DNA of 64,000 nt from Amphiscolops sp. MND2022 (lineage: Eukaryota). Positions 7,113-26,959 of this stretch are shown here, piece after piece (the first letter of the stretch is position 1; every line of letters starts with the position of its first letter). The notes below the pieces were generated by a model. The model was not told the origin of the DNA. It was given only the letters and a program-made list of their open reading frames with translations, and did not search any database. Location of the stretch: positions 27,776,001 through 27,840,000 of the forward strand of contig OZ076416.1 in assembly GCA_964187785.1 (NCBI GenBank). The letters run 5' to 3'. The position numbers were made by a program, and so were the translations under genes.

Positions 7113-7302
7113 AAAACAGCAATGCTCAAAACTATAGGTTAACCTGTATTATTTTATGAAAAGACCAGGCTTTCAACTGGGGCTTAGTAATGTTGCTTAT
7201 AGTTATAGCATTGCTTACAGAAATGTCAGTTCACTGGTCTTGAAGAGCGCCGACTAAAAGTTTGATCACCCTGCGTTTTGCACCAAAGTTCTCATGCTTT
7301 AA

Positions 7303-7768
7303 CCCCAATGAACCTAGTGATGCTTTAAAGCAGCCTACCTTTTTTCCAAATTCTGATTCCTTTTGCCAGTAGCCCATTTTCTCTAGCACAGTTTTTTTCA
7401 ACAAGTAATTGGTACCTAGATTGATTTGAATGGTACAAGCATTAGAAAAAGGGAATATATCTCCAAAGCTGAGAAAAATGGGTTTTTTGCACAAAAAAAG
7501 TTATATTTTCTCAAAATTCAGATTTTGACGAAATCCTGTTTTCTCAAAAGTCTTTGATCAATAGAAAAAACAAACCACATACCCTTCCACAACAAGTCCT
7601 GGTGGAACAAACCCCTATAATATTTTGTTGTTACTACAAGCCCCCGCGCAGCGGGCCGCACGCGCTATAGTTCGTTTCTCTGGTACGCGTAGTTGTGGAG
7701 ATATTAATTTTTTAAAATTTTTATTCAAATTTTTTGAAAATTTTAAAAAACGCCCAGGTCGATTGGGG
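7303..7768 (+). mobile_element. piggyBac-like MITE (466 bp)
   Basis: TTAA (7299-7302) | CCCCAATGAACCT ... AGGTCGATTGGGG | TTAA (7769-7772). The TIR matches at 11/13 positions. TTAA duplication and CCC/GGG ends are piggyBac hallmarks. Confidence 0.75.
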
Positions 7769-10951: not shown

Positions 10952-12292
10952 ATGCTGACAAAAGATTGGGTTATATAACAACTTGCTACTTTTCAGCAGC
11001 ATTCAGAAATGCAAGTGGATTCCACGGAAGTTTTACGGCTTTGTACTTGAGGATGATGGAATAGGAAAGGGACATTTAAATCCCAGTCAAATGAAACTAG
11101 AATTTTGTCTAGACAACTCGAACTTAATATTCCTTTTTCACGCACCATTAGACGTTGTAATTCATCCTCAACTTTCTTTCGAAAAACCGAATCCATGGAG
11201 CGTGTAAATGTTGGTTTAGTACGATTGTTGCAATAAGAATTCAAAATAAGTTTTTTTTCGAACCAATATTTCAAAGTTCGATTGATTCACAAATGAACTG
11301 GAAGTGGAATTTCAAGATCAAATTGAAGACGGGGTCATTTTTGAGCTAAATAGACCAAAACTGAAGTGAAACCAAATTCGTCAAACCAACAGCCCGTTAT
11401 ATCAGTAAAACCAAAGGCACAGCAGTCTCAAAAACACTTCAAATATCAGCGTTTCATTTGAAGCAGTCTTTTCTGTTTACAAGTGCCTGGATTCTGTCTA
11501 TTCGAACGTAATTCATGGCATCTTTCACAGCTTCAAATTAAGGTTTCACAATTTACTGGACAATAAAGTTGCAACCAAACTTTTGACATACATTATCTCC
11601 CAACTTTCAAAGGATAAATTTCAAAGTCTCTAAGTTTCAAAAACCAATGCGTCCTAAAATTCATCGAAATCCAGGTTTTATCCAGGGTATTCAGTTCATG
11701 GAGCAAAAACCGAAAACTCAAATGCAGTCAATTATGCAAAATAATTGAAGTCCCCAGTTTATTTATTTATAATACATGTACGGGAGATTGAATCAAGAAC
11801 TCTAGCGTCTTAACAGAGTTTCAGAAGTAGTTCAACAGAAAGCACGAGTCCAGGGACTATTCAAAGGATTAATTCAACGCTTTTTGGACACTTTTAACTC
11901 GTTCCTAAAAACAACTTTGGCAAACAATTATATTGTCTGCAGGATTCCGTGAATTTACGTCAGTGGCAAAACAAAAAAAAAGTTTTTCCGGGTGTTAAAA
12001 ACGCCCATAACCAAAAGAGTACATAACGAACACAGCCACTACCACCTCACGCGTGCGGTATGCCAATTATAGGGGGGAGGCAGTCCAGTTTGGTTTTCTT
12101 CATGAAAATAAAAAAAAACATGAAAATTAAAATGTGAGTGATACACCGAAACGCAATGCCAATTCAAAAGTTTCACTCTTAAAAATAAAACAGCACTCGC
12201 ACAATACGGTAATGAGACTCGAACTCTTCCGGTCAATCGTAACTCGAAATCAAACAGCCACGGTAAAAAGCTGCACCAAAAGTTAACGCGAC

Positions 12293-12625
12293 AACTTATA
12301 TCTCTACTTTTAAGATGAGTATTTATGGCTGGCGGCTGGATGCAGGAATGGAGAGCAGCCAAGTCTTCGGAACATGGATCACAATCCTCAGATTAGTTCT
12401 CAATCTTCTTATTTGAAAACACAACCATGCAATTCTCTAGTTATTGTCAGCACTGATGTTTTTGTATTAATAAGTGTTATTATAGTTATTTGTTTAAAGA
12501 TGCTGATCAAATAGTTAAAAGGTTAAAATTCTGTCATAGGTAAAATAGTTTTAAGGTCAAATATTTAAGAGTTCTTTCAATCAGTTCTTTTGTCCTCAAC
12601 AACGGAATGTTTCAGCTATGTTACA
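12293..12625 (-). repeat. 3' LTR (333 bp)
   Basis: Direct repeat of 26385-26717 with one substitution seen by eye (AAAATTCTG vs AAAGTTCTG). Element-strand ends are TGTAAC...ATAAGTT. Confidence 0.97.
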
Positions 12626-12634
12626 CTTCCTCTC
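12626..12634 (-). promoter_or_regulatory. Polypurine tract GAGAGGAAG
   Basis: Purine run directly 5' of the 3' LTR on the element strand. Confidence 0.8.
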
Positions 12635-13292
12635 ATCGAAAACCTTCCGGCGTCTGAAAAAGCCATCATACAGTCTGAGGAGTAGTGTAGTGATGATTAG
12701 AAGCTAAAATTGCCAAGTTGAGTAGTCTACTTCCAATAATTCCATTGAAAGAGCCCAAAGAGAAGAGTTTTGGAGAGCAACACAAGTCCCAGTTTCATGT
12801 TGTGATAAAGTTGTATATTTCATCCAGTCCAGTTGAATATTGTAGAGCCAAAGATTACTGCATTTATAGTTTACATATTACTGCAGAAGAAAATTTGTGA
12901 AAGGATTTGTTTTGATCAATCTCAATGATGAATGAATGATTGAACCGAAGGTTCGTTAAGTCAAGCAATGGTGTCGGCTTGGTCTGCTTCAAAGTCTCCG
13001 GTATCGGGAACCTTTTGGTTAATTGTAACTTGACAGTTACTCGGATGTTTTTTGATTGATGATTGAAGTTTTTGAATGGGTTGGCATTGTTTGAATGCAG
13101 TCGTCTCGTATTCAAACATTGAACTGGCCATTCTGGGGTCTAGTGGACTTTGCATGAGCACTTGATCGCAATTAGCAGATGTAGATGGTTCGTTTAGATT
13201 TCTTTTCGATTGTGAACGTGAAAGATGATATATTCGTCCAAATTTTTTGCGAAATTTATCCTCAGCATGAGAATCAGTTGTTTCCAATTTCA

Positions 13293-15461
13293 TCATGGGT
13301 TTAGCTCGCACTCTTTTTTATTTTTATCAAGTAGGGATGGGAACAATTTCGATGCCAGATTGTAGCGATGATAAATGTACATAAAGATCAAGTGCAAAGC
13401 TGTCGATACAATGAACACAGTTAATGTCAGCATGAATGAAATTCGGAACGGAACATACTGATTAAATTCTTTCGTTAAGGCTGGTTTCAAGAGTTTCATT
13501 TCTGATGCATATGGTCTGGCAATGTCGATCATATGTTTGACTTCACGATTCTTTGGTCCTTTTGCTAACTGTAGCTTTACCTCCTTCAATAACTTCACTC
13601 CTGCTTCAGCTTTCGATGTATAGAACGGCAATTCGTCCAAAGGGGGGACTTCCATAACCAATGAAGCGATAGGATTAGGCAGAGAAACTTGCAATTTTAT
13701 TGGTGGAATGTGAGCGCAACTTGATAGATCAGATCGGATTTTGATGTCAGTCATGATTTGCATTCCACATGCTAAAGTGATGAGACATATGCGGCATCCG
13801 CGAAAAGAAGAGCCCTGAACAGATGAAGACGAAACTTCACGAAGGGTAACTGCGTGAGCGGATTGAATTAACCAAATACCATAGCCTAAGTTTGTTGCTT
13901 GTTCTATGGCAGGCAGTTGTACAATTGTAGTATCACATACTGCAAGAGCTTCCGAAGCTGTACTAGAATATAAGGTAGCTAAACAAGACGAGTGTACCAT
14001 CTCTGTTGGAACAGACTCTGAACAGATTCGGTAACGAGATGAGCCGAGACAATGCTCAAACTGTTCTGCAGAGAGGACAGATGACTCCATGTGATCCTCC
14101 GACAAAGCTAAACATGGAGCTTCGATGTTCCATGTAAGAGCCGACTGGGGATCGTCTGGATACGGCATCGGAATTAATTTTGCTTCGTAGACAGTAAAAA
14201 CGGTTTGCTTAGATGCTAGCGGGACGTTGAGGGTCATCAAAAGACCTTCGTTAACCGTAATAGCATCTGCTAAGAGCTTGGAATCGAAGTAAGAGAGCAG
14301 ATCTGACATTGGGATAGCTAAAGACAGCCTATCCTCAGCCGTCGCCTGCTTCATTGCAACACTTCGTAGAATAGCCAATAACGATTCCGTTGGTACCAAA
14401 GACATAGGTAAATGACCTCTAAGTATAACCGGAATCGAATTTAAGATGTTCATGCGGAATGCAAATAAGGCCGCGCGATAGCTCTTAACGCTTGCATGTA
14501 TCATTGCTAGTAGCGAAGATAGGGTATCGAAATTGAAGTTTAGTTGTTGATTCGAAAAAAGCATTCGGTTGCAGTCGCGGAGTACATGAAAATTATGCTC
14601 AAAAACATCAAACTGTTGTTGAATAAGTACCCAGTTTTTGTTCTGCGTATCAACAAGTTCCCTTTGGATGTCGTGAAGGGCCGCCAATTCATTTTCAACC
14701 ATAAAAAATTTTTTGTCCGTAGATGTTGTAAATTCAGTTACATACTGGGTTAAAACGTCCTGGAAGTCTGATAGTTTGCGAATGTTCTCGGCATTTGCCT
14801 TCGCAGCATCTTGACAGGAACCAAAAATGCCTTGTAGTCCACAAGAGTCGGAACTACCGAGGGCCACTCCTCCTCCAAAAAGGCCGACTGCAGCAAGAGC
14901 CGCTAGTCCCACTTGGGATCCACGTCAGTGGCGAGTATTCCGCTGCTGTTGAGGAGGGGAGAGAAACATTGCTGTTTCATTACGTAGGAGGGCAACATCG
15001 AGTTCCGCAGTGTGGATTTCAGTTTCTATTTGTTGTAACATCCAGGTGACATTGAACGGCGTTGAATTTGTTGAAAAGTGACTTGAAAAATCCAAGGGAC
15101 AAAAAACAGATGGAAGTTCCCACATCGACGCGAATTTGGCCATTAAGGCCACAATATCTGGTTTAAGTGCGAAGTCATAAGTCGGAAAGGGGACTAAAAA
15201 TTCAATTTTTATAAATTTTTCCGCGAGCAAGATTTTACCGCGTTCATGGAACAGAACGCCCTTTTCTTGGATTTCGTTCGGGTTATTGGAGGCTTCTAAA
15301 TTAGAAAGCCACTCACTTCGAACTGAAGCAGGGGTGAAGAAAACCAGTAGGAACAAAACCAACATCGATCCGTTGTTCTTCGTGGGCTGTTTTCCCCTTT
15401 TTTTGTTTTTTTTTTGAAAGTTAGCGTAAAAGAGAAAATTGTCGACAGAATACTGTATCAA
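13293..15461 (-). pseudogene. env: Envelope / class I fusion glycoprotein, split by one in-frame TGA
   Basis: ORFs 14925-15461 and 13293-14912 are in the same frame. Order: signal peptide MLVLFLLVFFTPASVRS, RNTRH*RG furin-like site, fusion peptide GLAALAAVGLFGGGVALG, heptad region, Cys-rich region, C-terminal TM segment ISFMLTLTVFIVSTALHLIFMYIY. Confidence 0.88.
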
Positions 15462-15757
15462 CTAGTTCGATCGACCTCAAATGCAAGAATGGCACTTTAG
15501 GTATTTTTGGGCGGGTTTTGTGGATTTTTGAAAGATCACCAGAAATGTGATTCGATTTGTTTTCAATATCCGGTGCCCCTTTGATATTTACAAATTTCGA
15601 GATGTTAAAGTTTGTTTTGTCAAGTCATGTTTACGGTACTGGTTGTTTGACCTGTGATTGAAAACTCAGATTTTCGATTGCGGACTAGTGAAAGTGACCA
15701 TGAAATGAGCTGAATGTTTATTCAGTTGTCAAGCGTTTGTCCGAGTTTTTCAGTAAA

Positions 15758-16156
15758 ATGAAAGTGCTCGGCAGTGCCTTGATTACCATGTTATGGTTGT
15801 GGTATGCTGCATCGCAGGCGTGCGAGATGCAAGATTGGCAAGGCCATCGGATTTACTGCTGTGCCAACGGAACAGCTATTGAAAGCAAAATTGGACAAAA
15901 AGTATGGGTGGCGCAAAAGCCCAGAATTTGCAATTTGCCTGCGACGACAAAAATGTCTGAACAAACTAATCTGCCTAAAGTCATCATTTTGACTGTGATA
16001 ATTGTTGCCAGTGTCTGTGTCTGCCTGTGGAAGTGTCCGGTTCAAAAAGTCAGACGAATCATACGTTTTTGTGAAACAGAAACAGAAGACGAAAATCAAG
16101 TCAATGAAATGGAAGTCAAAGTAGTGAGAAAAATGCCGAAAAGCCAATCCTTTTAA
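15758..16156 (+). CDS. Small type-I membrane protein (132 aa), antisense inside the LTR element
   Basis: ATG at 15758. Signal peptide MKVLGSALITMLWLWYAASQA, 4-Cys ectodomain with an NGT sequon, TM segment VIILTVIIVASVCVCLW, charged tail. Confidence 0.6.
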   Translation: MKVLGSALITMLWLWYAASQACEMQDWQGHRIYCCANGTAIESKIGQKVWVAQKPRICNLPATTKMSEQTNLPKVIILTVIIVASVCVCLWKCPVQKVRRIIRFCETETEDENQVNEMEVKVVRKMPKSQSF

Positions 16157-16298
16157 GAGGCAACTCAATGAGGCGACATGATTATGAAAGTCTAAATTGC
16201 AGTTACTATTAATCGCAGGTCTTGTTTACTGCTAGGATATTGCAGTGGAAAATTGTGCCGTCGGGCAAAACAATTTGTTATTTGTTAAGAGTTTGCAG

Positions 16299-16905
16299 TT
16301 TTTAGTCGGCGCATTTTCCTTTAAGGAAAAAAGCCCGACTATTACAGTGGCTAGTTTTTTTTTCTTTTTTTTTCGTCAGACCACAGAGCTCATCGCGTAT
16401 GTACCACTTTTTACAGAAACTGCTAAGTTCACTCAGGCCAAGTTCCACCAATGCAAACTTACTGCAAAGGGTCCCCCCTTTCGTTTTTTACCTTTTTTAC
16501 GTAACCTACAAAACCGGAAGACTCCAAAGGGTCCCCCTTTCAATTTTTTTTCGGCACTGTGCGAATTTTTTTTCGAAAATTTTTAATTTTTCAAAAGAGT
16601 CCCCCCTTCGGATTTTTTGATATTTTGCAACAGAAAGTATGTTAATGAATCCCAAAGGGTCCCCCCTTTTCATTTTTCGGCACTATGCGACGTTTTCGAA
16701 GTTTTTTTCAAAAAAAATTCAAAAAAAATTTCAAAAAAAATTTCAAAAATTTTTTTGTTTCCAGTCATATCGAGCATGAAAGGCACACTTTGGGTGTCTC
16801 GAAAGTGTTTTCAAAGCTTTTCATGAATACATCCTGGGCATATTTAGAAAACTGAGCTTTTTGAGCCTTAGATATAGCGCCGACTTTAGACGTTCCCGTC
16901 TTGTT
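16299..16905 (+). mobile_element. HINE-like family A copy nested in the LTR element
   Basis: TTTTTAGTCGGCGC...CCCGACTAT at the 5' end. GCGCCGACT plus GACG-TTCC-CGTC (16889-16900) plus TTGTT at the 3' end. Confidence 0.75.
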
Positions 16906-17148
16906 ATTTCTACTTTTGAGTTTGAACAGTTCGAAAATTTAGAATTGAAAGAATTCAGTCGCCAGTATTTGTAGCTGCCAGATAATGCGTAGAATTTCCC
17001 TTCCAGCAAACTCGTACGCGGAGCAATATTCCTAAATGAACGTCACGCAGAGGTCAAATGTGAAGGCAAAGAGCAAACCAAAATTCAAGCTAAAGTGAAA
17101 GAAAACGTTTGAAAACAAAGGCGTGTAAATTAAGTTATTTCAGGAAGC

Positions 17149-18362
17149 ATGGAAAACACTCTGTATAGAGCAATCTGTGAAATGAAAAAGAACAATGAAG
17201 TAGATAAATTGGTTTGCCAAACAAAGGGTCAAAAAGATGTATGGGTGAAACGACTCAGGCGTTTCACTGTAAATGGAATGGGAGTGCTGTTCTGGAACGG
17301 TCAAAAGGTGCCAACATTAGAGGAACTGACTACCGTCCTATGGCCTCGCCATGCAAATGAGAAAAAACACATACAAGATGAAGGTTTCTTTCGGAAAGTA
17401 TTGTCCAACAAAGGATATGTGTTGCCGTCATTCATCGGGGGCCTCGAGCGGGCCGTAAAAACGTAGGTAGTGATATTTGGTGAAAACAAAGTCGTAAGAG
17501 GACAAAAACGGAGTTATCATTTTGTAGATTCTTGCACGATTGTCCAGAGTGCTTCTGGACAAGGCAAGCGGGATATCGTTGGCAGAGAGCAACGAGCGTG
17601 TCACGAAGAGAGCGACAAATTGCTTGTGAGAAATTGGGACTGACTTGGAAGAAAATGACAGACGAGCCAGAGGATGGAACAGTATTTGGATTAGGCGAAC
17701 CGCCAGTGGCATCCTGTAAAGCGATTCTAGCCCAAGGTGGTGGGAAGTGCTGGGCATCCAGCGTGTTTTATTTTCTTACTGGGAAAAAAAGTGGTAAGCG
17801 TACGTTATCTTAAAGGGGTTATCTGCAGAACTCTACTGATGTGCGAGAGATGAGATAAGTGTTGTTCCAGATAAAAAAAAGGACGGCTCTGCGTTGAAAC
17901 GAATCAGAGATACAATCGGAAATCACATGAAAACAGCCGAATTTCAAAAGTTTTGTATAGAGTGCCTGGAATATGCTCCCAATGAGTTCGAACTCAATGC
18001 TGTACTCCAATCAAATCTCGACATTAGTGAACCTTGGGTAAGACCATGTACAATAGGTAACTGAAACGATAGACGAGTAACTCAACTACATTATCGTGTT
18101 ATAGATGTTGGGGACTGCTCAAGTGCTAGGATGGGACATGTTAGTCTTCTGGAGATACTCGGAAAAAAAGGATGGATTCGCTATCCAGCCAAAACAAGGG
18201 GCCCGTCATCAAGGGCCGCATTTCTCTTTCACGTGATTCATTCCGAGAAGGAGAAAATTTCATTGTGAGCCACTAATAGATTGGCCAATCGAAAAGTTAG
18301 TTGTGACAAATTATGAACATGTAAAAGGAAAGCTGGAGTGTAATGCCGTTATCTATATGTAG
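17149..18362 (+). CDS. Four-exon antisense gene: H2C2 Zn-binding-like N-terminus plus OTU-like cysteine protease (about 334 aa)
   Basis: Exons 17149-17462, 17528-17793, 17871-18037 and 18105-18362, joined in frame by GT-AG introns of 65, 77 and 67 nt. Motifs: H-x5-H...CPEC, QGGGKCWASSVFYFLTG, MLGTAQVLGWDMLVF, FHCEPL. One TGA at 18234-18236 in exon 4. Confidence 0.65.
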
Positions 18363-18906
18363 CGACGATCTAACGTATGAAGGAAATGGGGAGTGCTATA
18401 AGCCACCCGCAAAGAAGGCAAGAAAATACTGGAACTGATCAGATCACTGACTGATTCATCATCTCATATCAAAAGTCACAAAAGACATCGAACTCAGGAA
18501 GTTTAAGCTTTTGTTCACGAAATTCTTATAATACTAGTAGGGAAGCAAGCGGATTGCTGGCAGAGGGGCTCGAGCCAAGTACAATGGTCTTTCAGCTGCG
18601 AAAACCATCAAAAGATGTAAAATTTTTCTGAAAACAATGAGATCTCGAGGCGCGCCGTACGGCGAGGAAAATTTTTTTTCTTTCACGATTCCACTAAAAA
18701 GGGTGTCACTCGAAAGAGCATGGTAAAAAAGGGGGGGACACCGAAAATCCAGGTTGGGTACGAAAATTTAACAGTGAAAAAAGTTCTCTTGAAAAGGGCG
18801 ATTTTCATGTTTGTTGTGTTTTTGGTAATACGTTAACTGAAAGAAGAGTAAAGAGCGACGTCTAGTGAGTGAAAAGCGATTGCATGACCCCAAGAACGAT
18901 CGGTCA

Positions 18907-19323
18907 TTAACGTGGGGGCTGAATGATTGTAATAGTAATCTGAGACTTTGAGAAAGTACGATATAAAAGGGAAAAAACAGTTGGCCAATGTAATCGCTCA
19001 AGACCGCTTCCGAGTCGCGGGATGCTAAGTGCTCGAATTTTATGGCGCTCTAAATGCTGACGAAGGGCCATCAAACTCAATTGAAGTGTTTCGTAGTTAG
19101 GTTGATGAAAAAATCGTTTTTTGGTCACTAAATTATAGATATAACGTTGATGAAGTCTGTCAAAATAAGAGACCAGTGATCCCGGCGGTAAACGTTTTTG
19201 AGTGTTAAAACGAAGCTGGCGAAGCGCAGGGTGGCGGTAAGCGATGGCAGATGCTAGACCGCGTTTCATATGAAAGTCAGCGGAAACACAGTGAGCTATA
19301 GACTCTGTAGAGTCTAGGATATT
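18907..19323 (-). CDS. TARG1/OARD1-like macrodomain (frameshifted C-terminal end of pol)
   Basis: NILDSTESIAHCVSADFHMKRGLA...YIYNLVTKKRFFHQPNYETLQLSL...LSIPRLGSGLERLHWPTV follows the OARD1-family pattern (SLAHCIS.D..MG.GIA...YIYYLITK.R...P.Y..L..SL...SMPRIGCGLDRL.W). Confidence 0.85.
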   Translation of the reverse strand, partial: NILDSTESIAHCVSADFHMKRGLASAIAYRHPALRQLRFNTQKRLPPGSLVSYFDRLHQRYIYNLVTKKRFFHQPNYETLQLSLMALRQHLERHKIRALSIPRLGSGLERLHWPTVFSLLYRTFSKSQITITIIQPPR

Positions 19324-20346
19324 CGAAAGAAAAGCAAAAGTTCGGATGACTGTCAGAGGAAATAGAGTTTAAAACATTAGATGAGGACAGTCTTTTCTTC
19401 AAATTACGGAAATTATAGCGTGCTTTTACTTCCTTTTGGTGCTGAAGATACTCCTGAGGAGATTGCGGTGTCAGCTGTTGCGTGGTAGTTGGGTGGACCC
19501 GTGGACTTGCATCAGAAGGAGGTCGAGTTCGTTGACAAGAGTCGAGCAAGAGTGTGCGCTTATCTGCCTTCAGGAAGCTTGTACCTGGAACCTGAGTCAG
19601 CGCTGTTCTAGGTGACGGTTGTCCATATGATTTAGGTCCACGTCCAATAAAGACTGGTACTGTTTCACGATTCTCATCGAAATTCAAAGTGCAATTAGTG
19701 CGAGATGAGGTAGTCGGAAGTTTCGGACGGACTGTACGTGATTCTTGCTCGGCCAAGGTGGGTGTAGATGCACCTGCGTAGCGTGCCTGGTCGGCATCTG
19801 AAGTCGTTCGTGGAGTGACGGAGAATCTGTGGATTCATCGTCAAGATATGGCACAAGCGCTGGTTGTTGTTCTTCGTCCTGGGCTGGCAGTGCGGGAATT
19901 GCTGGAGCTGCTGCTGTAGCTGGTAGGGGTGGAACTGCTGGCCCTGGAGCTGGTCCCATCGGGATAACAGCTGGTGCAATAGGAAAACTAAGCGAAACCG
20001 TAACCGGTGGAGGCTTTTCTTCGTTGTGAGCCACCCTAGTTTCCTCTGAGGGAGGTAACAGAAGAGTTGGAATGCTTTCATCGAAAATAGCTGGTTCTCC
20101 ACGGAATCGCCCAAGCATAGGATCGCGTTTAAATTTCTCCTGGTCAATTTGCGGTAAGTCGTCAACTTGATATTGCGGTACAACCGGTCGGAGACGGATT
20201 CGATGTACACATTGAGTATAATTTGTACCGACCTTGCGGATGATGTAATTTGAATTGGTTAAAACTTGCTCGACGCGATACAATGGTAGCCAGATAGGAA
20301 GGAACTTACTCGAAAAATCGGACTGCGTCATTAGTTTTGGATTCAA
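19277..20346 (-). pseudogene. pol C-terminal extension (integrase tail plus Pro/Ala-rich linker) in two frameshifted pieces
   Basis: 19684-20346 continues the integrase C-terminus (LYRVEQVLTNSNYIIRKVGT...VHRIRLRP). 19277-19756 continues the linker towards the macrodomain. Confidence 0.7.
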
Positions 20347-23300
20347 AAGAAGACAAAACGAGAATTGTTTTAGAGGTTGCGCTTCGTAATCTTAAGGTAG
20401 CTTTGTAATCATAATATGCGCGGTATCTATTATACATTTCAGTCAATTTACTTTTTGCTGCAGAAAATTTCTGTAGCATGGCATCCTGCAATGCAAGCAC
20501 ATATTCTGTAGTCGGTTGCGCACGTGCAAGCGAACTGTTATTAAACCTGAGATCTAAAGGTTTCAGAGGCTCTCGACAATGAAACAAGGTGGTCGGGCTC
20601 GTTCCGATTGCAAAATGATAAGTATTATGAATGAAAGCTGCAAGTTGTACATACTTGTACCAGTCGTTCCACTGCTGAGTGGTGTTTAGTTTCAAGATTC
20701 GTTTAAGGGCGCTATGCGAGCGCTCCACAACACCGACAGTTTGCGGGTGCTTTAGACTGGCATGTTCTAATTTTATTTCCAAAAGTTTAGTCAATTCGTG
20801 CATCAATTCACTCACAAAAGTAGTACCCAAGTCGGATAAAATTGTTTTTGGAAGATAACTATGACGGAAAAATATCGACGCAAGTTCTCGTGCAACGGTT
20901 TCTGACCTCCCATTAGTAAGTGGGACTGCAAAAAGATATTTTGTAAAAACATCAATACCCGTAAGAACATAACGGTAGAGCAGAGACTGTAACGGACCGA
21001 CAAGGTCAATTTGTAACATTTCGCCCGGGTAAGATTTCAACAAGGAGACCGGTTGTAACGGAGTTTTCAGATTTTTGCTTGGTACACGTTTCAGTTGCAA
21101 ACATTGTAGACAGTTTTGGATAGTTGACGTTAAGTATTCTGTAAAATTCGGAAAATAAAAGCGTTTTCTAAATTCTTCAACCGTTTTATTGATTCCCATA
21201 TGGCCTGCTGTCGGCGAGTTATGCAAGCGGTAAATTACTTCGCGCCATAGGGATTTAGGGACACAGAACTGTTTGTGTTGCACTTTTCCTTGATCGTCAT
21301 AAAAAAGGCGATAAAGAACTTTGTCCTGAATGATTAGGCGTGGAAACTGTTTACGATATTTTCGCAAAGCTATCGGTAAATTTGGCGACATGTCCGGCGA
21401 GCCTCGGTCTTTCCATTGCATTACTTCACGAATGATCTCGTCTTGATTTTGTACTAGAGCGAGGTCTATTGGCTCTGACCGGTTGGGCAAATCATCAAGA
21501 ATGTCGCTGAATTCTTCTGACGAGACTAAGTTTATTTGATTTATTTGACAGAAAGAGTAAAAGCCAGTGATGTCAAGAGACGGGGTAGTCTGCGCTTCGG
21601 TTGTTTTCTGTAAAAACTGTTCGTAGAGACCAAATTCTTTCAATTGTGAAATTAGGCGTTCGTCAGCCTGATCGTCAACAGATTCCGGAAAAGGTGATCT
21701 ATCCGAAATATTTGATAAAGCGACATCAGGAGATTTCGCTTCGGTTGCTATTTCAATATCTTTAATAGGTATACGATCAGTTAATTTGAGAGACAGGGTT
21801 AGAGTAGGGTCTGTTTGCATTCGTGATAAAAAATCTGCGGCCGAATACGCTTCACCAGGAATATGAGCAAGGAGAATGTTGAAAGACAAAACTCTATCCA
21901 AACAGTTCCATAACGATGGATGAATACTTTTAGATTGGAAAAATTGCGTGAGACTACGGTTATCGGTTAAGACTAGCACAGGTTTAGTTGCGCCCCATAT
22001 AAAATGTGCAAAATGGTCTAAGGCGAAATAGAGAGCAAGAAATTCTTTATAGTAAACCGAAAATTTCAATTGCGTCGGACCAAACAACCGAGATCCAAAG
22101 GAGACCGGCGCGTATACTTTTTTCTCTTTTCCTTGTTGATCTAACAAGTAGTCCTCAATCATGAGGACAAAGCCTGTGCCATGGTAACTAGCGTCACAAA
22201 GGAGTACGTATTGGAGACCAGGTTTTGCCAATCGCAAAGTAGAGTTGGTAGCATTTCGTAAATCGGTTTTCAATAAATCTAGTGCTTCGCTATGTTCTTT
22301 AGTGGTTTTAAATTCTACATCTTTTCGCAAAAGTTTGTAAAATGGTAGCAATTTTTGGCCCAAGTTGGGCATGAACGAACGAAAAAATTGGACAAATCCA
22401 ATCAATCTTTTCACTTGTTTAACAGTTTCTGGCATTCTGATTTTTTCGAGAAATTTGTTTATTTTGTCAGCTTCTGGTGAGATTCCTTTAGGTGTTATGG
22501 TGCTTCCCAAATAATCAATCTTGGTCGTCCCAAATTCACATTTATGAGCAGACAATTTTAATCCTGATGCACGCAGGCAATCAAAAATTTTTGTTAAAGC
22601 AGGAGTCATCTCATCAAAATTGTTTACTCCCATGGCAATGTCGTCCATGAATTGAGTACAAACATTGGCAGCAAGACATTTATCTAAGTAGTGTTTAACG
22701 AACGAACTAAATCCGGTGACGGATTTGTTCAGGCCTTGGGCTAAACAATTATAAGCAAATGTACGCGAAGCGAAATTAAATGCCAGCAACTGTACCGAAA
22801 GGTCATCTGCCATTTGAACGCAATGGTATGCTTGCGAACAATCAAGTTTACAAAATAACTTCTTTCCCGCAAAATGGTTTGTCGCATCTGTCATATTTGA
22901 AATGAGGAAATTGCTATTTAAGTAATCATGGCGTAGGAGGTGATTGACTCTTCTGAGATCGATAAGTATGCGAAGCTTGCCATATGGTTTGCGATGTACA
23001 AATATCGGACTAGAATATTTGGAGTGTGACAACGTAGTTATGATGTTAAAATATTGTAATAACGCCAATTCAACTAAAATTTCATCACGCAAATGAATCG
23101 GTGCTGGTGGACCTTGAACGTATACCGGAAGTTGATGAGCAGGCGTTAATTTGATCTTCAATTCTGTGTTATACCCAACATCAAAGCGATGTTTTGCAAA
23201 CACGTCATGATATTCAACAAGAAAGTCCTCCAATTTTGATTTTTCATCAGCGCTCAAAACACATGTATCCCACGTAAATTTTTTCAAACATTCTTGTCTA

Positions 23301-24415
23301 TCGTGTGGATTGCTTTTTGGGTTTATTTTTTCACAACGTTGAAGTTGCAATATTTGGTCGTAAATTTCACGTTGCAACGGTGACAAATTTGAAAGATCTG
23401 TACATGTTTCGGGAGTCGGAAACCAAAGTTTTGAGTAATCTGGTGGCGGCCGACCATTGTCAGTGTCAAATTTCTGAAAGTGGATATCTTGAATGAGCTG
23501 ATTAAGTTCATTTTCAAAATCGTCGGGTCTTCTAATTTTTGCGAGTGCCAATAATTGTGGATCTATTTCAAGGAGATACTCAGCCTGTGACTCGCTCAAA
23601 ATTTCGAAATGTGCAATTTGTTTTTTGCTATTTAGCGTAATCTGGGAATCGGACAAATTGATCGCTGATATGTATATTTTATTGTCATTATCCATCTTGC
23701 TCAGAGACGAAGTTAATGCAACATTGGCTTTGTCCTCCAGATTCTTGTTTGGAATTACTAATCCTGTGCAATTGGCGAACTGGTCAGTATATTCATCCAA
23801 ATAGCATTCAAGGAGGACTTGTTGCTGCGGTCCAATATTGACTTTTTTGCTCAATAGGATAGGTATATTTTTCATTTTTTTCACAAATTGTCGTTTTTTT
23901 CCAGCGTCCGGTTTCATTTCATTGAGTTGAACCGTAAAGTCGGGCAGTTTCAGTAAGTTGTTTTTGGGGTCTATCGTGATATTCTGTTTTTTAAAGGAAG
24001 AGTTTCCCAAAATTACACTATTCATTTTTGGTAGCACGAGAAAACTGTCCGTAAAGGAATGAATTCCAATACAGAATGTGAGATTCACCTGATTGTCAAC
24101 TGACACTCGTTGTCCTGAAGCCATGCGGACAGACGTATAATTTGGAGTTTCATTTTTAATTAAGTCGGGATGACTCAAACGTAATTCGTCGTATAAATTT
24201 TGAGGCAATGCATTAGCGCAGGCGCCTGTATCAATGAGGGCTCTCCGACGAATGTTCGGAGAAAATTTCAATTTAACGTAGGAAAGATTTTCACCTTCAA
24301 GAGGCAAAACAGCGCATATATCTGGCTTTTTTAATTCTATGTTACATGTGTGTGGCTCATTGGACTGGTTTTCATGTAGAGAAATAGACGGTGGAATCTT
24401 GTGCTGCGTTTTTAG
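20306..24415 (-). CDS. pol: Pol polyprotein (aspartic protease, RT, RNase H, integrase)
   Basis: ALIDTGA (PR), LDCSQAY and QFMDD (RT), LCDASYHG/TDNRSL (RNase H), H..H..C..C, QIDLVGP, SDLG and ER..S (integrase). The frame is open from the frameshift site at 24415. Confidence 0.95.
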   Translation of the reverse strand, partial: LKTQHKIPPSISLHENQSNEPHTCNIELKKPDICAVLPLEGENLSYVKLKFSPNIRRRALIDTGACANALPQNLYDELRLSHPDLIKNETPNYTSVRMASGQRVSVDNQVNLTFCIGIHSFTDSFLVLPKMNSVILGNSSFKKQNITIDPKNNLLKLPDFTVQLNEMKPDAGKKRQFVKKMKNIPILLSKKVNIGPQQQVLLECYLDEYTDQFANCTGLVIPNKNLEDKANVALTSSLSKMDNDNKIYISAINLSDSQITLNSKKQIAHFEILSESQAEYLLEIDPQLLALAKIRRPDDFENELNQLIQDIHFQKFDTDNGRPPPDYSKLWFPTPETCTDLSNLSPLQREIYDQILQLQRCEKINPKSNPHDRQECLKKFTWDTCVLSADEKSKLEDFLVEYHDVFAKHRFDVGYNTELKIKLTPAHQLPVYVQGPPAPIHLRDEILVELALLQYFNIITTLSHSKYSSPIFVHRKPYGKLRILIDLRRVNHLLRHDYLNSNFLISNMTDATNHFAGKKLFCKLDCSQAYHCVQMADDLSVQLLAFNFASRTFAYNCLAQGLNKSVTGFSSFVKHYLDKCLAANVCTQFMDDIAMGVNNFDEMTPALTKIFDCLRASGLKLSAHKCEFGTTKIDYLGSTITPKGISPEADKINKFLEKIRMPETVKQVKRLIGFVQFFRSFMPNLGQKLLPFYKLLRKDVEFKTTKEHSEALDLLKTDLRNATNSTLRLAKPGLQYVLLCDASYHGTGFVLMIEDYLLDQQGKEKKVYAPVSFGSRLFGPTQLKFSVYYKEFLALYFALDHFAHFIWGATKPVLVLTDNRSLTQFFQSKSIHPSLWNCLDRVLSFNILLAHIPGEAYSAADFLSRMQTDPTLTLSLKLTDRIPIKDIEIATEAKSPDVALSNISDRSPFPESVDDQADERLISQLKEFGLYEQFLQKTTEAQTTPSLDITGFYSFCQINQINLVSSEEFSDILDDLPNRSEPIDLALVQNQDEIIREVMQWKDRGSPDMSPNLPIALRKYRKQFPRLIIQDKVLYRLFYDDQGKVQHKQFCVPKSLWREVIYRLHNSPTAGHMGINKTVEEFRKRFYFPNFTEYLTSTIQNCLQCLQLKRVPSKNLKTPLQPVSLLKSYPGEMLQIDLVGPLQSLLYRYVLTGIDVFTKYLFAVPLTNGRSETVARELASIFFRHSYLPKTILSDLGTTFVSELMHELTKLLEIKLEHASLKHPQTVGVVERSHSALKRILKLNTTQQWNDWYKYVQLAAFIHNTYHFAIGTSPTTLFHCREPLKPLDLRFNNSSLARAQPTTEYVLALQDAMLQKFSAAKSKLTEMYNRYRAYYDYKATLRLRSATSKTILVLSSFESKTNDAVRFFE

Positions 24416-25725
24416 TTTTTTTGATTTTGATTGAACGGCATTTGGGCTCCTCGTTGTGGCGGGTTACCTTGCGCAGTACAATCTTTTGCTAGATGATTCG
24501 GATATCCGCAATTATAGCAAGTATGTGTTGATTGTTGTGTATAAGGCATGTAATGCGGATCCGGAGTAAAAACTTCAAATGTAGTTTGCGATGAACCTTG
24601 ATTGGAATTCCCTTGTTGAAAGTTTTCCTGATTATGATTTGACCATTGTTGCTGACTATTTTGATTCTGATTAAAATTTGAATTTTGGTAATTTTGATTT
24701 GACTGATTGTAATTTCTGCCGTAATTGTTCTGCCAAGGTCGTCCTCGAACTTGGTAACCTCGACCTCGGTTTCCACGGTTATTGCCGCGATACCGACCAC
24801 GGTAATTTCCTCGATTTCCGCGATAGCCTTGGCCACGATAGTTTTGAGAGCCGCGTTGCGAATTGTTTTGGTTTTGCTGATTTTGTAACTGAGTGGTAAA
24901 ATTCGTAGCTTGCTCTTCTAGTTTTTTGGACATTTCGTTCAGTCGATTGTCCATAGTTTCTTGACTATGGCTCAATTTTGTAAGAGCTGTAACTAAAGTA
25001 TCAGATACTGAAGGGCGCACTTCACTGAAAGCATCCATAACCGAATCTTCAACTTCACAAAGGTTATAGATCGAAAGTTGTTTCCGAGCAAATATACACA
25101 AATCTTCAACCGTTGTATTTTCCGGTTGTTCCAAAAGTTTCGCTCGAAGCCAGCCCGGCATATTTTTTATAAATTGTCTCCGAATCTGAGTGGAGCGCGC
25201 TTGTTGCGCTGAATGAATTATTTCGGCTCTTCTGGCGGTTTCAGAATCAAATCGTGTTTGTTCGACTGCTGCGTCCGGCGCGGCACCGTCAATTGGTGCT
25301 ACTGCGGGTGGATTTGGGTCGGGATAAGCTTTAAGTGCTTTCGTTTGTAACGTGACTAAAAAATTCTCTGGATTGTCTGTTTTGGGATCGAATTTTAAGT
25401 TTTCCAATTTAAGAACATGCAATTCCTGAAGTCTTGGATTACAAAAGTGATCACGAAGAGCTGTCAAAGAGAGGTCTAAGTCCGCACGTGTTGCTACCGG
25501 TAGTGTTTGAAAATAGCGGAGCGCAGCGTCTCTAAGATGAAGTTGTAAAAAGTTGGCTTGCTGCGCTTGCGGTACCGCAGCTACTGCTAAGATACTTCGT
25601 AACAAATGTTCGAATTCACGAAAATTTTCCTTTTCTAAACCCGAGTAGGGTGTTAGCGAGAGTTGAGGTAAAGCAGCCATGATTTGAAAAGTTAAGTGTA
25701 AAATAAAGAGTGACGAATAAGACAA
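24412..25725 (-). CDS. gag: Gag with C-terminal CCHC zinc knuckle
   Basis: 437-aa ORF upstream of pol, with an RG/N/Q-rich nucleocapsid region and CYNCGYPNHLAKDC. Confidence 0.92.
   Translation of the reverse strand: MSYSSLFILHLTFQIMAALPQLSLTPYSGLEKENFREFEHLLRSILAVAAVPQAQQANFLQLHLRDAALRYFQTLPVATRADLDLSLTALRDHFCNPRLQELHVLKLENLKFDPKTDNPENFLVTLQTKALKAYPDPNPPAVAPIDGAAPDAAVEQTRFDSETARRAEIIHSAQQARSTQIRRQFIKNMPGWLRAKLLEQPENTTVEDLCIFARKQLSIYNLCEVEDSVMDAFSEVRPSVSDTLVTALTKLSHSQETMDNRLNEMSKKLEEQATNFTTQLQNQQNQNNSQRGSQNYRGQGYRGNRGNYRGRYRGNNRGNRGRGYQVRGRPWQNNYGRNYNQSNQNYQNSNFNQNQNSQQQWSNHNQENFQQGNSNQGSSQTTFEVFTPDPHYMPYTQQSTHTCYNCGYPNHLAKDCTAQGNPPQRGAQMPFNQNQKN
24415..24421 (-). promoter_or_regulatory. -1 ribosomal frameshift slippery site A_AAA_AAC (gag-pol)
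   Basis: Heptamer is in the correct phase immediately before the gag TAA. The -1 frame is stop-free and continuous with pol. Confidence 0.8.
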
Positions 25726-26373
25726 ACTAAGATTGTAGTGAAGAAAAAATTGAAAAATTGTCGATCAAAGTATGTAAAATGCAGTCGAACACTGATGTGT
25801 AGTTTGTACTTCGAAAACTGAACAACGAATATGATACTTTCAAGGCGAAACAAGAAAGATTTGAGATCAAATTTAAAAGGTTTTTGCAACAACTACAATT
25901 TGCAGTGAAAAAAGGAAATTTGCCTTTGGAAAAAAGTAAAAAGTTTGCAGAAATTCACAGTTGAGTTTCTGAAAGAGTAACAGCTGTGAGACACAGTTCA
26001 GTTGAAAATGAAAACAGTTGAAACACTCATGAAATTCGAAATTTACACTATATCACTTTACTGCTTCAGAATTGAATCAAACTCACCGACTGTATTCGTA
26101 CTGGCACTTTGAAGTCATCATGAAATTGAATACAGATATAGGAGCATCAAAATTCGCCCAAGTGGAGAAAGTCACCAAAACTCATCTTTGATTTCTGTAG
26201 TTTCCAGTTTCTGCCGTGCCGTGTTTGTTTCAGTTATTACAGCCTCGTGGATCTGGTGCTGGTCGTGGATGATGTGGCTGGAACACCGCGGGTGGTTGGT
26301 CGGGTGTCTCGTGTGAGCTTTTCAACACAAAAAGGAGAGTTCTTCTCTGTATTGCATAATGAGGATTGTTTTG

Positions 26374-26385
26374 CTCCTGTCACCA
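26374..26385 (-). promoter_or_regulatory. Primer-binding site TGGTGACAGGAG (tRNA-Leu-like)
   Basis: Begins on the last base of the 5' LTR. Differs at one base from the complement of the vertebrate tRNA-Leu(CAG) 3' end (TGGTGTCAGGAG). Confidence 0.7.
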
Positions 26386-26717
26386 ACTTATATCTCTACT
26401 TTTAAGATGAGTATTTATGGCTGGCGGCTGGATGCAGGAATGGAGAGCAGCCAAGTCTTCGGAACATGGATCACAATCCTCAGATTAGTTCTCAATCTTC
26501 TTATTTGAAAACACAACCATGCAATTCTCTAGTTATTGTCAGCACTGATGTTTTTGTATTAATAAGTGTTATTATAGTTATTTGTTTAAAGATGCTGATC
26601 AAATAGTTAAAAGGTTAAAGTTCTGTCATAGGTAAAATAGTTTTAAGGTCAAATATTTAAGAGTTCTTTCAATCAGTTCTTTTGTCCTCAACAACGGAAT
26701 GTTTCAGCTATGTTACA
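26385..26717 (-). repeat. 5' LTR (333 bp)
   Basis: Direct repeat of 12293-12625, followed by the TSD CGAC. Confidence 0.97.
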
Positions 26718-26959
26718 CGACATTTTCGACATTGGGTTAAAACTCCTATTTACTGACGATTATTTCACACAGATCCGAAACCATGTTTTTGTCCGAGGAT
26801 AACCATCCATTCAGACTTCTCTACGTCAAATTCGTCAGTGTAAAAAAAGCTGGTACAGTCGACCTCGATATAACGAACCATTGATACAACGTAACTCTCG
26901 TTAAAACGCAATTTGATTTCTAAACCAATAGAAATCAAGTACACATTCAAGTACAGAAC

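Follow-up and report, generated by a model that had tools for sequence, protein, structure and literature searches.

The window analysed here, 64,000 nucleotides (nt) of contig OZ076416.1 from Amphiscolops sp. MND2022 (GCA_964187785.1, positions 27,776,001 to 27,840,000), carries on its minus strand, at 12294-26717, an env-bearing long terminal repeat (LTR) retrotransposon with two additional genes on the opposite strand. The element is a Ty3/gypsy retrotransposon, as it has the LTRs, the target site duplication (TSD), the primer-binding site (PBS) and the order of protease, reverse transcriptase (RT), RNase H and integrase of that group. The 5' LTR (26386-26717, minus) and the 3' LTR (12294-12625, minus) are 332 nt each, differ by one substitution and read TGT...AGT at their ends on the element strand, and the 5-nt duplication CGACA is found on both sides (12289-12293 and 26718-26722), so that the near-identical LTRs and clean TSD reported in the first-pass annotation of this DNA were borne out. 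The PBS-like stretch starts with TGG (26368-26385, minus), and its motif has 38 exact matches in genome G000 and 0 for the reversed control; a polypurine-tract-like stretch, recognized by its sequence and presumed to serve as such, adjoins the 3' LTR (12626-12637, minus). The gag gene (24412-25680, minus) encodes a CCHC knuckle scoring above the Pfam cut-off for zf-CCHC, and pol (20306-24463, minus) encodes RT, RNase H and integrase, with RT, RNase H, H2C2 and rve all above the Pfam cut-off, besides weak protease and dUTPase-like matches. Two antisense genes had been claimed between pol and env, and the interval does hold two plus-strand genes, namely an open reading frame (ORF) for a membrane-like protein of 132 amino acids (aa) at 15758-16156, and a four-exon gene from 17149 to ~18300, which becomes visible only on reading all frames.

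The four coding exons of the second antisense gene all lie on the plus strand. Exon 1 (17149-17462) encodes an N-terminal extension resembling that of integrases, together with the HH half of an HHCC zinc finger, exon 2 (17528-17793) the CxxC half of the finger, a linker and the putative OTU catalytic Cys loop (GGGKCW), exon 3 (17871-18037) the OTU helical region, and exon 4 (18105-18299) the OTU strands and the His motif (FHCEPL at 18258), this last exon being broken in the window copy by two frameshifts and a premature stop ahead of the His motif. A stop-free frame reading GHVSLL (18101-18265) was rejected as exon 4, because a different frame is conserved in the sister copies. Splice signals were read across copies at positions fixed by protein motifs: AG stands at all 31 anchors of the intron-1 acceptor, GT at 28 of the 29 first donors that were located and at all 26 second donors, and YAG at all 28 exon-4 acceptors; donor 3 was left out of these counts, since the pattern used to search for it itself required GT. 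These sites indicate that the gene is likely spliced from four exons with GT-AG introns, whose predicted lengths are 61-137 nt. All exons were readable in 18 copies, whose predicted products of ~280-335 aa have identities as low as 31% and share 43 invariant columns; the F-x-C-E-P motif belongs to these, as do the Cys of GG[KEH]C[WF] and the HHCC finger. The catalytic Cys and the Glu are present in all 18 products and the His in 17, and a His-to-Gln change was noticed in two copies. The ratio of nonsynonymous to synonymous substitution (dN/dS) was 0.11-0.18 in the five informative pairs out of 153 (146 were saturated, one was identical and one nearly identical), which points to purifying selection; the earlier claim of accessory genes turned on these ORFs not being neutral, and they are not.

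The first-pass annotation had called the product an OTU-like protease, and we could uphold this call through indirect homology to members of PF02338. The OTU family, searched against G000, had nine matches there, four of which correspond to an intronless ORF lying antisense just past pol in a BEL/Pao family (7 kb, with 311-nt LTRs). This ORF has 107 matches in G000, and its antisense position after the BEL pol was seen in 12 of 12 further sampled loci and thus in 16 of 16 in all. The BEL/Pao protein passes the Pfam OTU cut-off, and a profile of the Gypsy products matched it over nearly the full length with 37.9 bits, the best of 1000 shuffles reaching 5.6, while profile-profile E-values for the two halves of the protein were 7e-5 and 3e-3. 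Furthermore, a search of 1.84 billion proteins gave 145 hits, 19 of which were tested; the ten distant ones, helicase+OTU and integrase-core+OTU proteins among them, all pass the OTU cut-off, and the remaining nine are family fragments without a match. The nearest distant relatives are integrase-core+OTU and Pif1-helicase+OTU proteins, that is, Ginger1-like and Helitron-like ones. An AlphaFold model of the BEL homologue, built on an alignment that contained OTU relatives, had a pLDDT of 85.5 and superposed on OTU structures with Z of 12-13 and rmsd of 2.8-4.2 over 121-138 residues; its first 106 residues matched Ty3 and foamy-virus integration-complex chains with Z of 7.6 and 7.2, which are middling values by themselves. 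For the Gypsy product itself only a partial frame running through exon 3, the intron and exon 4 was modelled, with an AlphaFold pLDDT of 37, and the ESM Atlas gave no usable match for this frame. Thus, combined with the retained catalytic residues, the Gypsy protein is predicted to be a divergent OTU-domain protease with an integrase-like N-terminal zinc finger. By homology it should act like an OTU protease and not as a Ginger1 transposase, and its gene would have arisen from a Ginger1-type integrase-OTU protein minus the DDE core. In several BEL/Pao families of G000 the integrase-finger+OTU ORF, which has no introns, lies in antisense in the interval from pol to the 3' LTR (C3:92.749 Mb, C1:86.42 Mb, C6:50.34 Mb, C5:12.73 Mb and loci L073-L084). 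The other OTUs seen in this genome appear Helitron-like or host-like by length and motifs; the OTU-bearing frames at L059, L085, L088, L089 and L093, some of them longer than 2,200 aa, look Helitron-like.

To what extent the antisense block is shared was judged from sister copies and from more distant loci. An LTR search of G000, in which 40 of 134 candidates were scored at 95-100% identity, yielded a sample of 17 sister loci with LTR pairs. A perfect 5-nt TSD was present in 15 of the 16 junction pairs parsed (window copy included), and the paired LTRs differ by 0-6 substitutions, or 14 in one three-LTR locus, and the family has therefore moved recently. Exon 2 is retained in 14 of the 17 sister copies and the small gene in 15, the block-deficient copies being two with internal deletions and one without the block. 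With 150 of 272 candidates scored, G000 contains at least 151 matches to exon 2, whose identities run from 33% to 100%, and the small protein has 98. In 20 loci sampled across the range of exon-2 identity, an integrase lies on the opposite strand at the same spacing in every case, env is matched in 19 (in one by a short piece only), and RT identity to the window copy runs from 99% down to 54%. The block is thus shared across the family, and its presence both in sister copies and in all 20 related loci disposes of the view that it was captured by this copy alone. Part of the element also occurs as a tandem array at G000:C9:6870940-6882647, with seven copies of the PBS motif spaced by ~1,943 nt, and the sister loci L025, L033-L035, L013-L014 and L031-L032 show internal tandem duplications or nesting (of the protease and macrodomain segment, of env, of part of pol, and in a three-LTR locus), which are either real or assembly artefacts.

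The integrase and accessory trees of 17 loci were concordant at their deep splits, and the protease gene has therefore been long resident in the lineage. In the young family the integrase cores differ at 0-7% of synonymous sites (pS 0-0.07), and the accessory exons differ at 74-91% of theirs (pS 0.74-0.91) in 12 of 15 pairs, including one pair with identical integrase cores; DNA identity between copies falls only across the antisense block. The simplest reading is that recombination put old cassette alleles on new backbones, which could occur by template switching between co-packaged RNAs.

The small gene (15758-16156, plus) encodes the small membrane protein of the first-pass annotation, and we would describe its 132-aa product as a type I membrane-like protein with a signal-like N-terminus, a Cys-rich ectodomain, a transmembrane (TM) segment at ~aa 69-95 and a tail reading S-x-hydrophobic. 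Only four of 136 pairs were informative for selection; three of them gave dN/dS of 0.22, 0.35 and 0.36, and the fourth, in which the tail is frameshifted, gave 0.88. No relatives of it were identified outside the lineage, the ESM Atlas leads all being under 0.9. The longer alleles end in the S-x-hydrophobic tail, with the Ser invariant in 8 of 8 aligned (window 16142-16156), and the shorter alleles from distant loci have no such tail. The tail resembles what we take to be a class I PDZ-binding motif. In the window copy, acceptor-like sites precede the ATG of both antisense genes, 4 nt upstream in the small gene and 5 nt upstream in the protease gene; such a site lies within 15 nt of the ATG in 16 of 25 and 18 of 23 starts of the two genes, as compared with 14% of background ATGs, these copies not being independent of one another. 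In 16 loci, the 600 nt ahead of the small gene showed no conserved donor, and no consistent poly(A) signal was found. The leader of the antisense genes may come from the 3' LTR, from which HBZ, the antisense gene of human T-cell leukaemia virus type 1 (HTLV-1), is spliced, or from trans-splicing. A retroelement message that is trans-spliced, to SL1, is that of Cer1 (PMC3315495).

The env gene (13293-15365, minus) encodes a putative class I, F-type fusion glycoprotein with a signal peptide, a fusion-peptide-like segment and a C-terminal TM segment, and is interrupted in the window copy by a stop at 14925-14927. Its product has 185 database relatives, two of which (P0072 and P0114, 48-50% identity) pass the Baculo_F cut-off, and on this homology we infer that env encodes an F-type class I fusion protein, in agreement with the env-bearing Gypsy first proposed. 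Only one of 18 aligned env relatives passes the same cut-off, and the matches of env to HA2 and F0 fusion segments in the PDB are weak.

The first-pass annotation further held that pol ends in a macrodomain, and suggested that this domain makes up a virus-like counter-defence kit with the protease and the membrane protein, coronavirus nsp3 being cited as a parallel. A macrodomain of the TARG1/OARD1 type is present (18907-19338, minus; E 5e-23 to human TARG1/OARD1, PDB 4j5q). It is the C-terminal domain of Pol in sister copies and lies in the RT frame in four of the 17; in the window copy it is parted from pol by frameshifts. The Lys of the TK motif is kept and so is, in most sister copies, the Asp of GLDRL, the window copy having Glu at this position; these two residues we take to be the catalytic ones of TARG1-type macrodomains. 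Median dN/dS was 0.23 over 75 of 171 pairs, which are non-independent, and the domain is predicted to remove ADP-ribose. Membership in an obligatory kit was not sustained, because the macrodomain is missing from six of six distant-clade loci that retain both antisense genes; similar macrodomains are moreover common in G000 (1000 candidates, 150 scored), also at other positions of pol. The macrodomain is thus an optional extension of Pol and not a partner specific to the cassette, and the likeness to nsp3 reduces to an analogy, the PDB matches being to TARG1 and the protease being an OTU on the opposite strand. In another Gypsy-like family (L095, G000:C2:11381397-11383157, and relatives) a TARG1-like macrodomain lies upstream of the integrase core in a 1617-aa frame.

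Besides the broken exon 4 of the protease gene and the stop in env, the window copy has frameshifts in the Pol tail past the integrase core (19277-20391, minus), which comprises the GPY/F region and a low-complexity linker; these lesions may be mutations or homopolymer assembly errors. The interval between pol and env had been given as about 3.4 kb, and it does belong to the inserted unit. About 600 nt of it (16304-16900) belong to an interspersed repeat of the host that is nested here; it bears sub-terminal inverted repeats and, at its 3' end, a hairpin, and sits in a T-run. This repeat is no part of the family, since it is present at this position in none of 37 other loci, and the native antisense block therefore measures ~2.8 kb. 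We compared it with the HINE features given in PMC4067079 and regard it as HINE/Helentron-like; the same non-coding repeat is abundant, with many sites in the window. A dUTPase-like match lies between protease and RT (~23610-23855, minus, pol aa 204-285) with an E-value of 0.0019, which is below the cut-off. Long inverted repeats (~93%) ~7 kb apart, at 1-546 and 7299-7720 of the window, possibly belong to a DNA transposon.

We argue that the cassette of this env-carrying gypsy element, a predicted zinc-finger-tethered OTU deubiquitinase together with a predicted small membrane protein, would benefit the element by escape from ubiquitin-dependent removal or silencing, an interpretation which in our judgement has an even chance of being right. 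The introns would outlast reverse transcription because they lie on the strand opposite to the genomic RNA. The integrase-like N-terminus could tether the protease to chromatin, to nucleic acid or to the integration complex of the element itself. The tethered deubiquitinase would keep ubiquitin-dependent processes from removing or silencing chromatin or the proteins of the element. The membrane protein would have its place of action beside Env, either on the cell surface or along the secretory pathway. More tentatively, we would entertain a wider view, in which a Ginger1-derived integrase-finger-OTU protein is a portable antisense accessory gene of two LTR superfamilies. In the env-bearing Gypsy lineage it would be joined with the membrane-protein gene into a two-gene unit, spliced to a leader or in trans, and the exchange of its alleles between genomes would supply modules for host range or counter-defence. 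Such an accessory system would resemble that of complex retroviruses and would have evolved independently in an invertebrate.

Several observations weigh against the proposed escape function and the protease identity on which it builds. None of the single exons reached the Pfam OTU score, a PDB sequence search with the accessory profile found nothing, the Cys loop reads GGGKC or VGGEC as against the canonical GDGNC, and six further BEL-type proteins fall below the OTU cut-off. The fold model is that of the BEL homologue, with OTU relatives in its alignment; no protein spanning the exon junctions occurs among 293 database proteins; and no Ginger1-like donor was found in G000, in what is a weak test with 94 of 16,929 candidates scored. 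Nothing in the data points to a substrate or to a host defence pathway, and purifying selection speaks for benefit, which is not the same as counter-defence. Moreover, the block is not needed in cis, for three of the 17 sister copies have intact LTR pairs although the block is partly or wholly missing from them.

An alternative that we regard as possible, if doubtful, is that the OTU protein is a transposition helper, which by stripping ubiquitin or SUMO would keep integrase stable or guide DNA repair where the element inserts. Such a role has been proposed for the OTU/Ulp1 domains of Ginger1 and Helitrons (PMC2836005), and it agrees both with the integrase-core+OTU and Pif1-helicase+OTU proteins being the nearest distant relatives and with a homologue in BEL/Pao elements that show no env; on the other hand, deeply diverged alleles on near-identical backbones and a fast-evolving membrane partner fit a host-facing role better. 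It is unlikely, in our view, that the protein is real but no working deubiquitinase; it would then be a regulator that binds nucleic acid or integrase, comparable to HBZ or to the antisense proteins of Retand, or it would cleave another substrate. The altered Cys loop, the two copies with Gln for His and the lack of a direct Pfam or PDB match would suit this, but even products of 31% identity retain the Cys, the His and the Glu after it, arranged and spaced as in the OTU motifs.

Could the block be a mere passenger, that is, an ancient nested Ginger-derived fragment or a piece of a host gene without benefit? The region does gather nested repeats, the block has been lost from some copies, and introns and an antisense orientation are what nested insertions typically show. 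This explanation is largely refuted by the low dN/dS of the protease gene, the conserved splice sites, the co-divergence with integrase, the fixed position in 20 of 20 sampled loci and the second home in BEL/Pao, and we consider it very improbable. Retroelements can be restricted through antisense transcription and small membrane proteins, and the cassette might accordingly be tolerated as host-beneficial or self-limiting, for instance through an antisense transcript, or because the membrane protein blocks superinfection. Here selection works on many dispersed, recent insertions and not on one fixed locus, and we give this explanation equally little credence. Among these readings, escape from ubiquitin-dependent removal or silencing is the one that we prefer.

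Complex retroviruses and many RNA viruses are characterized by accessory genes directed at host ubiquitin pathways, and the BEL/Pao relative would make the protease a shared accessory gene, as in complex retroviruses. A conserved, multi-copy and naturally polymorphic predicted deubiquitinase in Gypsy and BEL/Pao offers a handle on why transposons carry OTU/Ulp1 proteases, and the gene ties the gene pools of DNA transposons and retroelements together. Genes of this kind are overlooked because antisense introns conceal them from ORF scans.

Env-bearing Gypsy elements, plant antisense ORFs, extra ORFs shared among rotifer elements and transposon OTUs (PMC2836005, PMC4067079) are each already known separately. 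In the literature consulted we found no animal LTR element for which an OTU, a macrodomain or an antisense gene with splicing is described, most subscription papers and the Repbase reports lying outside the scope of that literature, and the available parts of PMC6338049, PMC9040795 and bioRxiv 10.1101/2021.11.30.470311 hold nothing on macro or OTU domains in LTR elements. The macrodomain is homologous to TARG1/OARD1 (4j5q), with the key Lys and Asp mostly kept, and differs from it in being fused to the end of Pol; it is not of the coronavirus Mac1 type. The small membrane protein has in common with the sORF2/FAST-like proteins of the MDG1 group (PMC11952523) that it is a short, divergent, single-TM Gypsy protein with basic residues after the TM segment. 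Unlike them, it starts with MK and a hydrophobic run and has no myristoylation motif, its Cys-rich ectodomain is ~45-50 aa long as compared with their ~30 aa, and it is encoded antisense and alongside env.

As to the antisense arrangement, the plant Gypsy elements Retand and Grande (PMC11963269) similarly carry family-wide antisense ORFs downstream of pol, whose domain TRP28 is named after a transposase. They are found in plants and have no env, and the words intron, protease and Ulp1 are absent from the available text on them. A further likeness, one of arrangement, is that to antisense genes of the HTLV-1 HBZ type, named in the same article, which are also antisense accessory genes in an env-bearing LTR element. 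Bdelloid rotifer LTR elements (PMC5408684) resemble the present case in that the same type of extra ORF occurs in unrelated retroelement lineages, and they include small TM ORFs and a paramyxovirus-like env; their ORF3s are of the GDSL, DEDDy or TM types, however, and OTU, macro and intron are absent from the text as available. The Ginger1 DNA transposons have a layout of YPYY, H2C2, DDE, GPY/F and OTU with 1-4 introns (PMC2836005), and the protease shares with them a YPYY-like motif (clear in the BEL homologue), the H2C2 finger (a weak match in P0313, E 0.017), a C-terminal OTU and 1-4 GT-AG introns. The Gypsy protein differs by having neither the DDE core nor GPY/F, its products of ~315 aa leaving only ~60 aa between the CxxC and the Cys loop, and by lying antisense inside LTR elements and not in a stand-alone transposon. 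Finally, the env-carrying Ty3/gypsy errantiviruses with F-type env (Chary and Hayashi, PMC13524379) share with the window family the order LTR-gag-pol-env-LTR, the F-type env and multiple near-identical copies. In the available text and seven supplements of that article, a search by keyword met neither OTU, accessory nor antisense, nor macro in the sense of a domain, and in this comparison it is only the window family that has the ~2.8-kb antisense block of two genes and the macrodomain.

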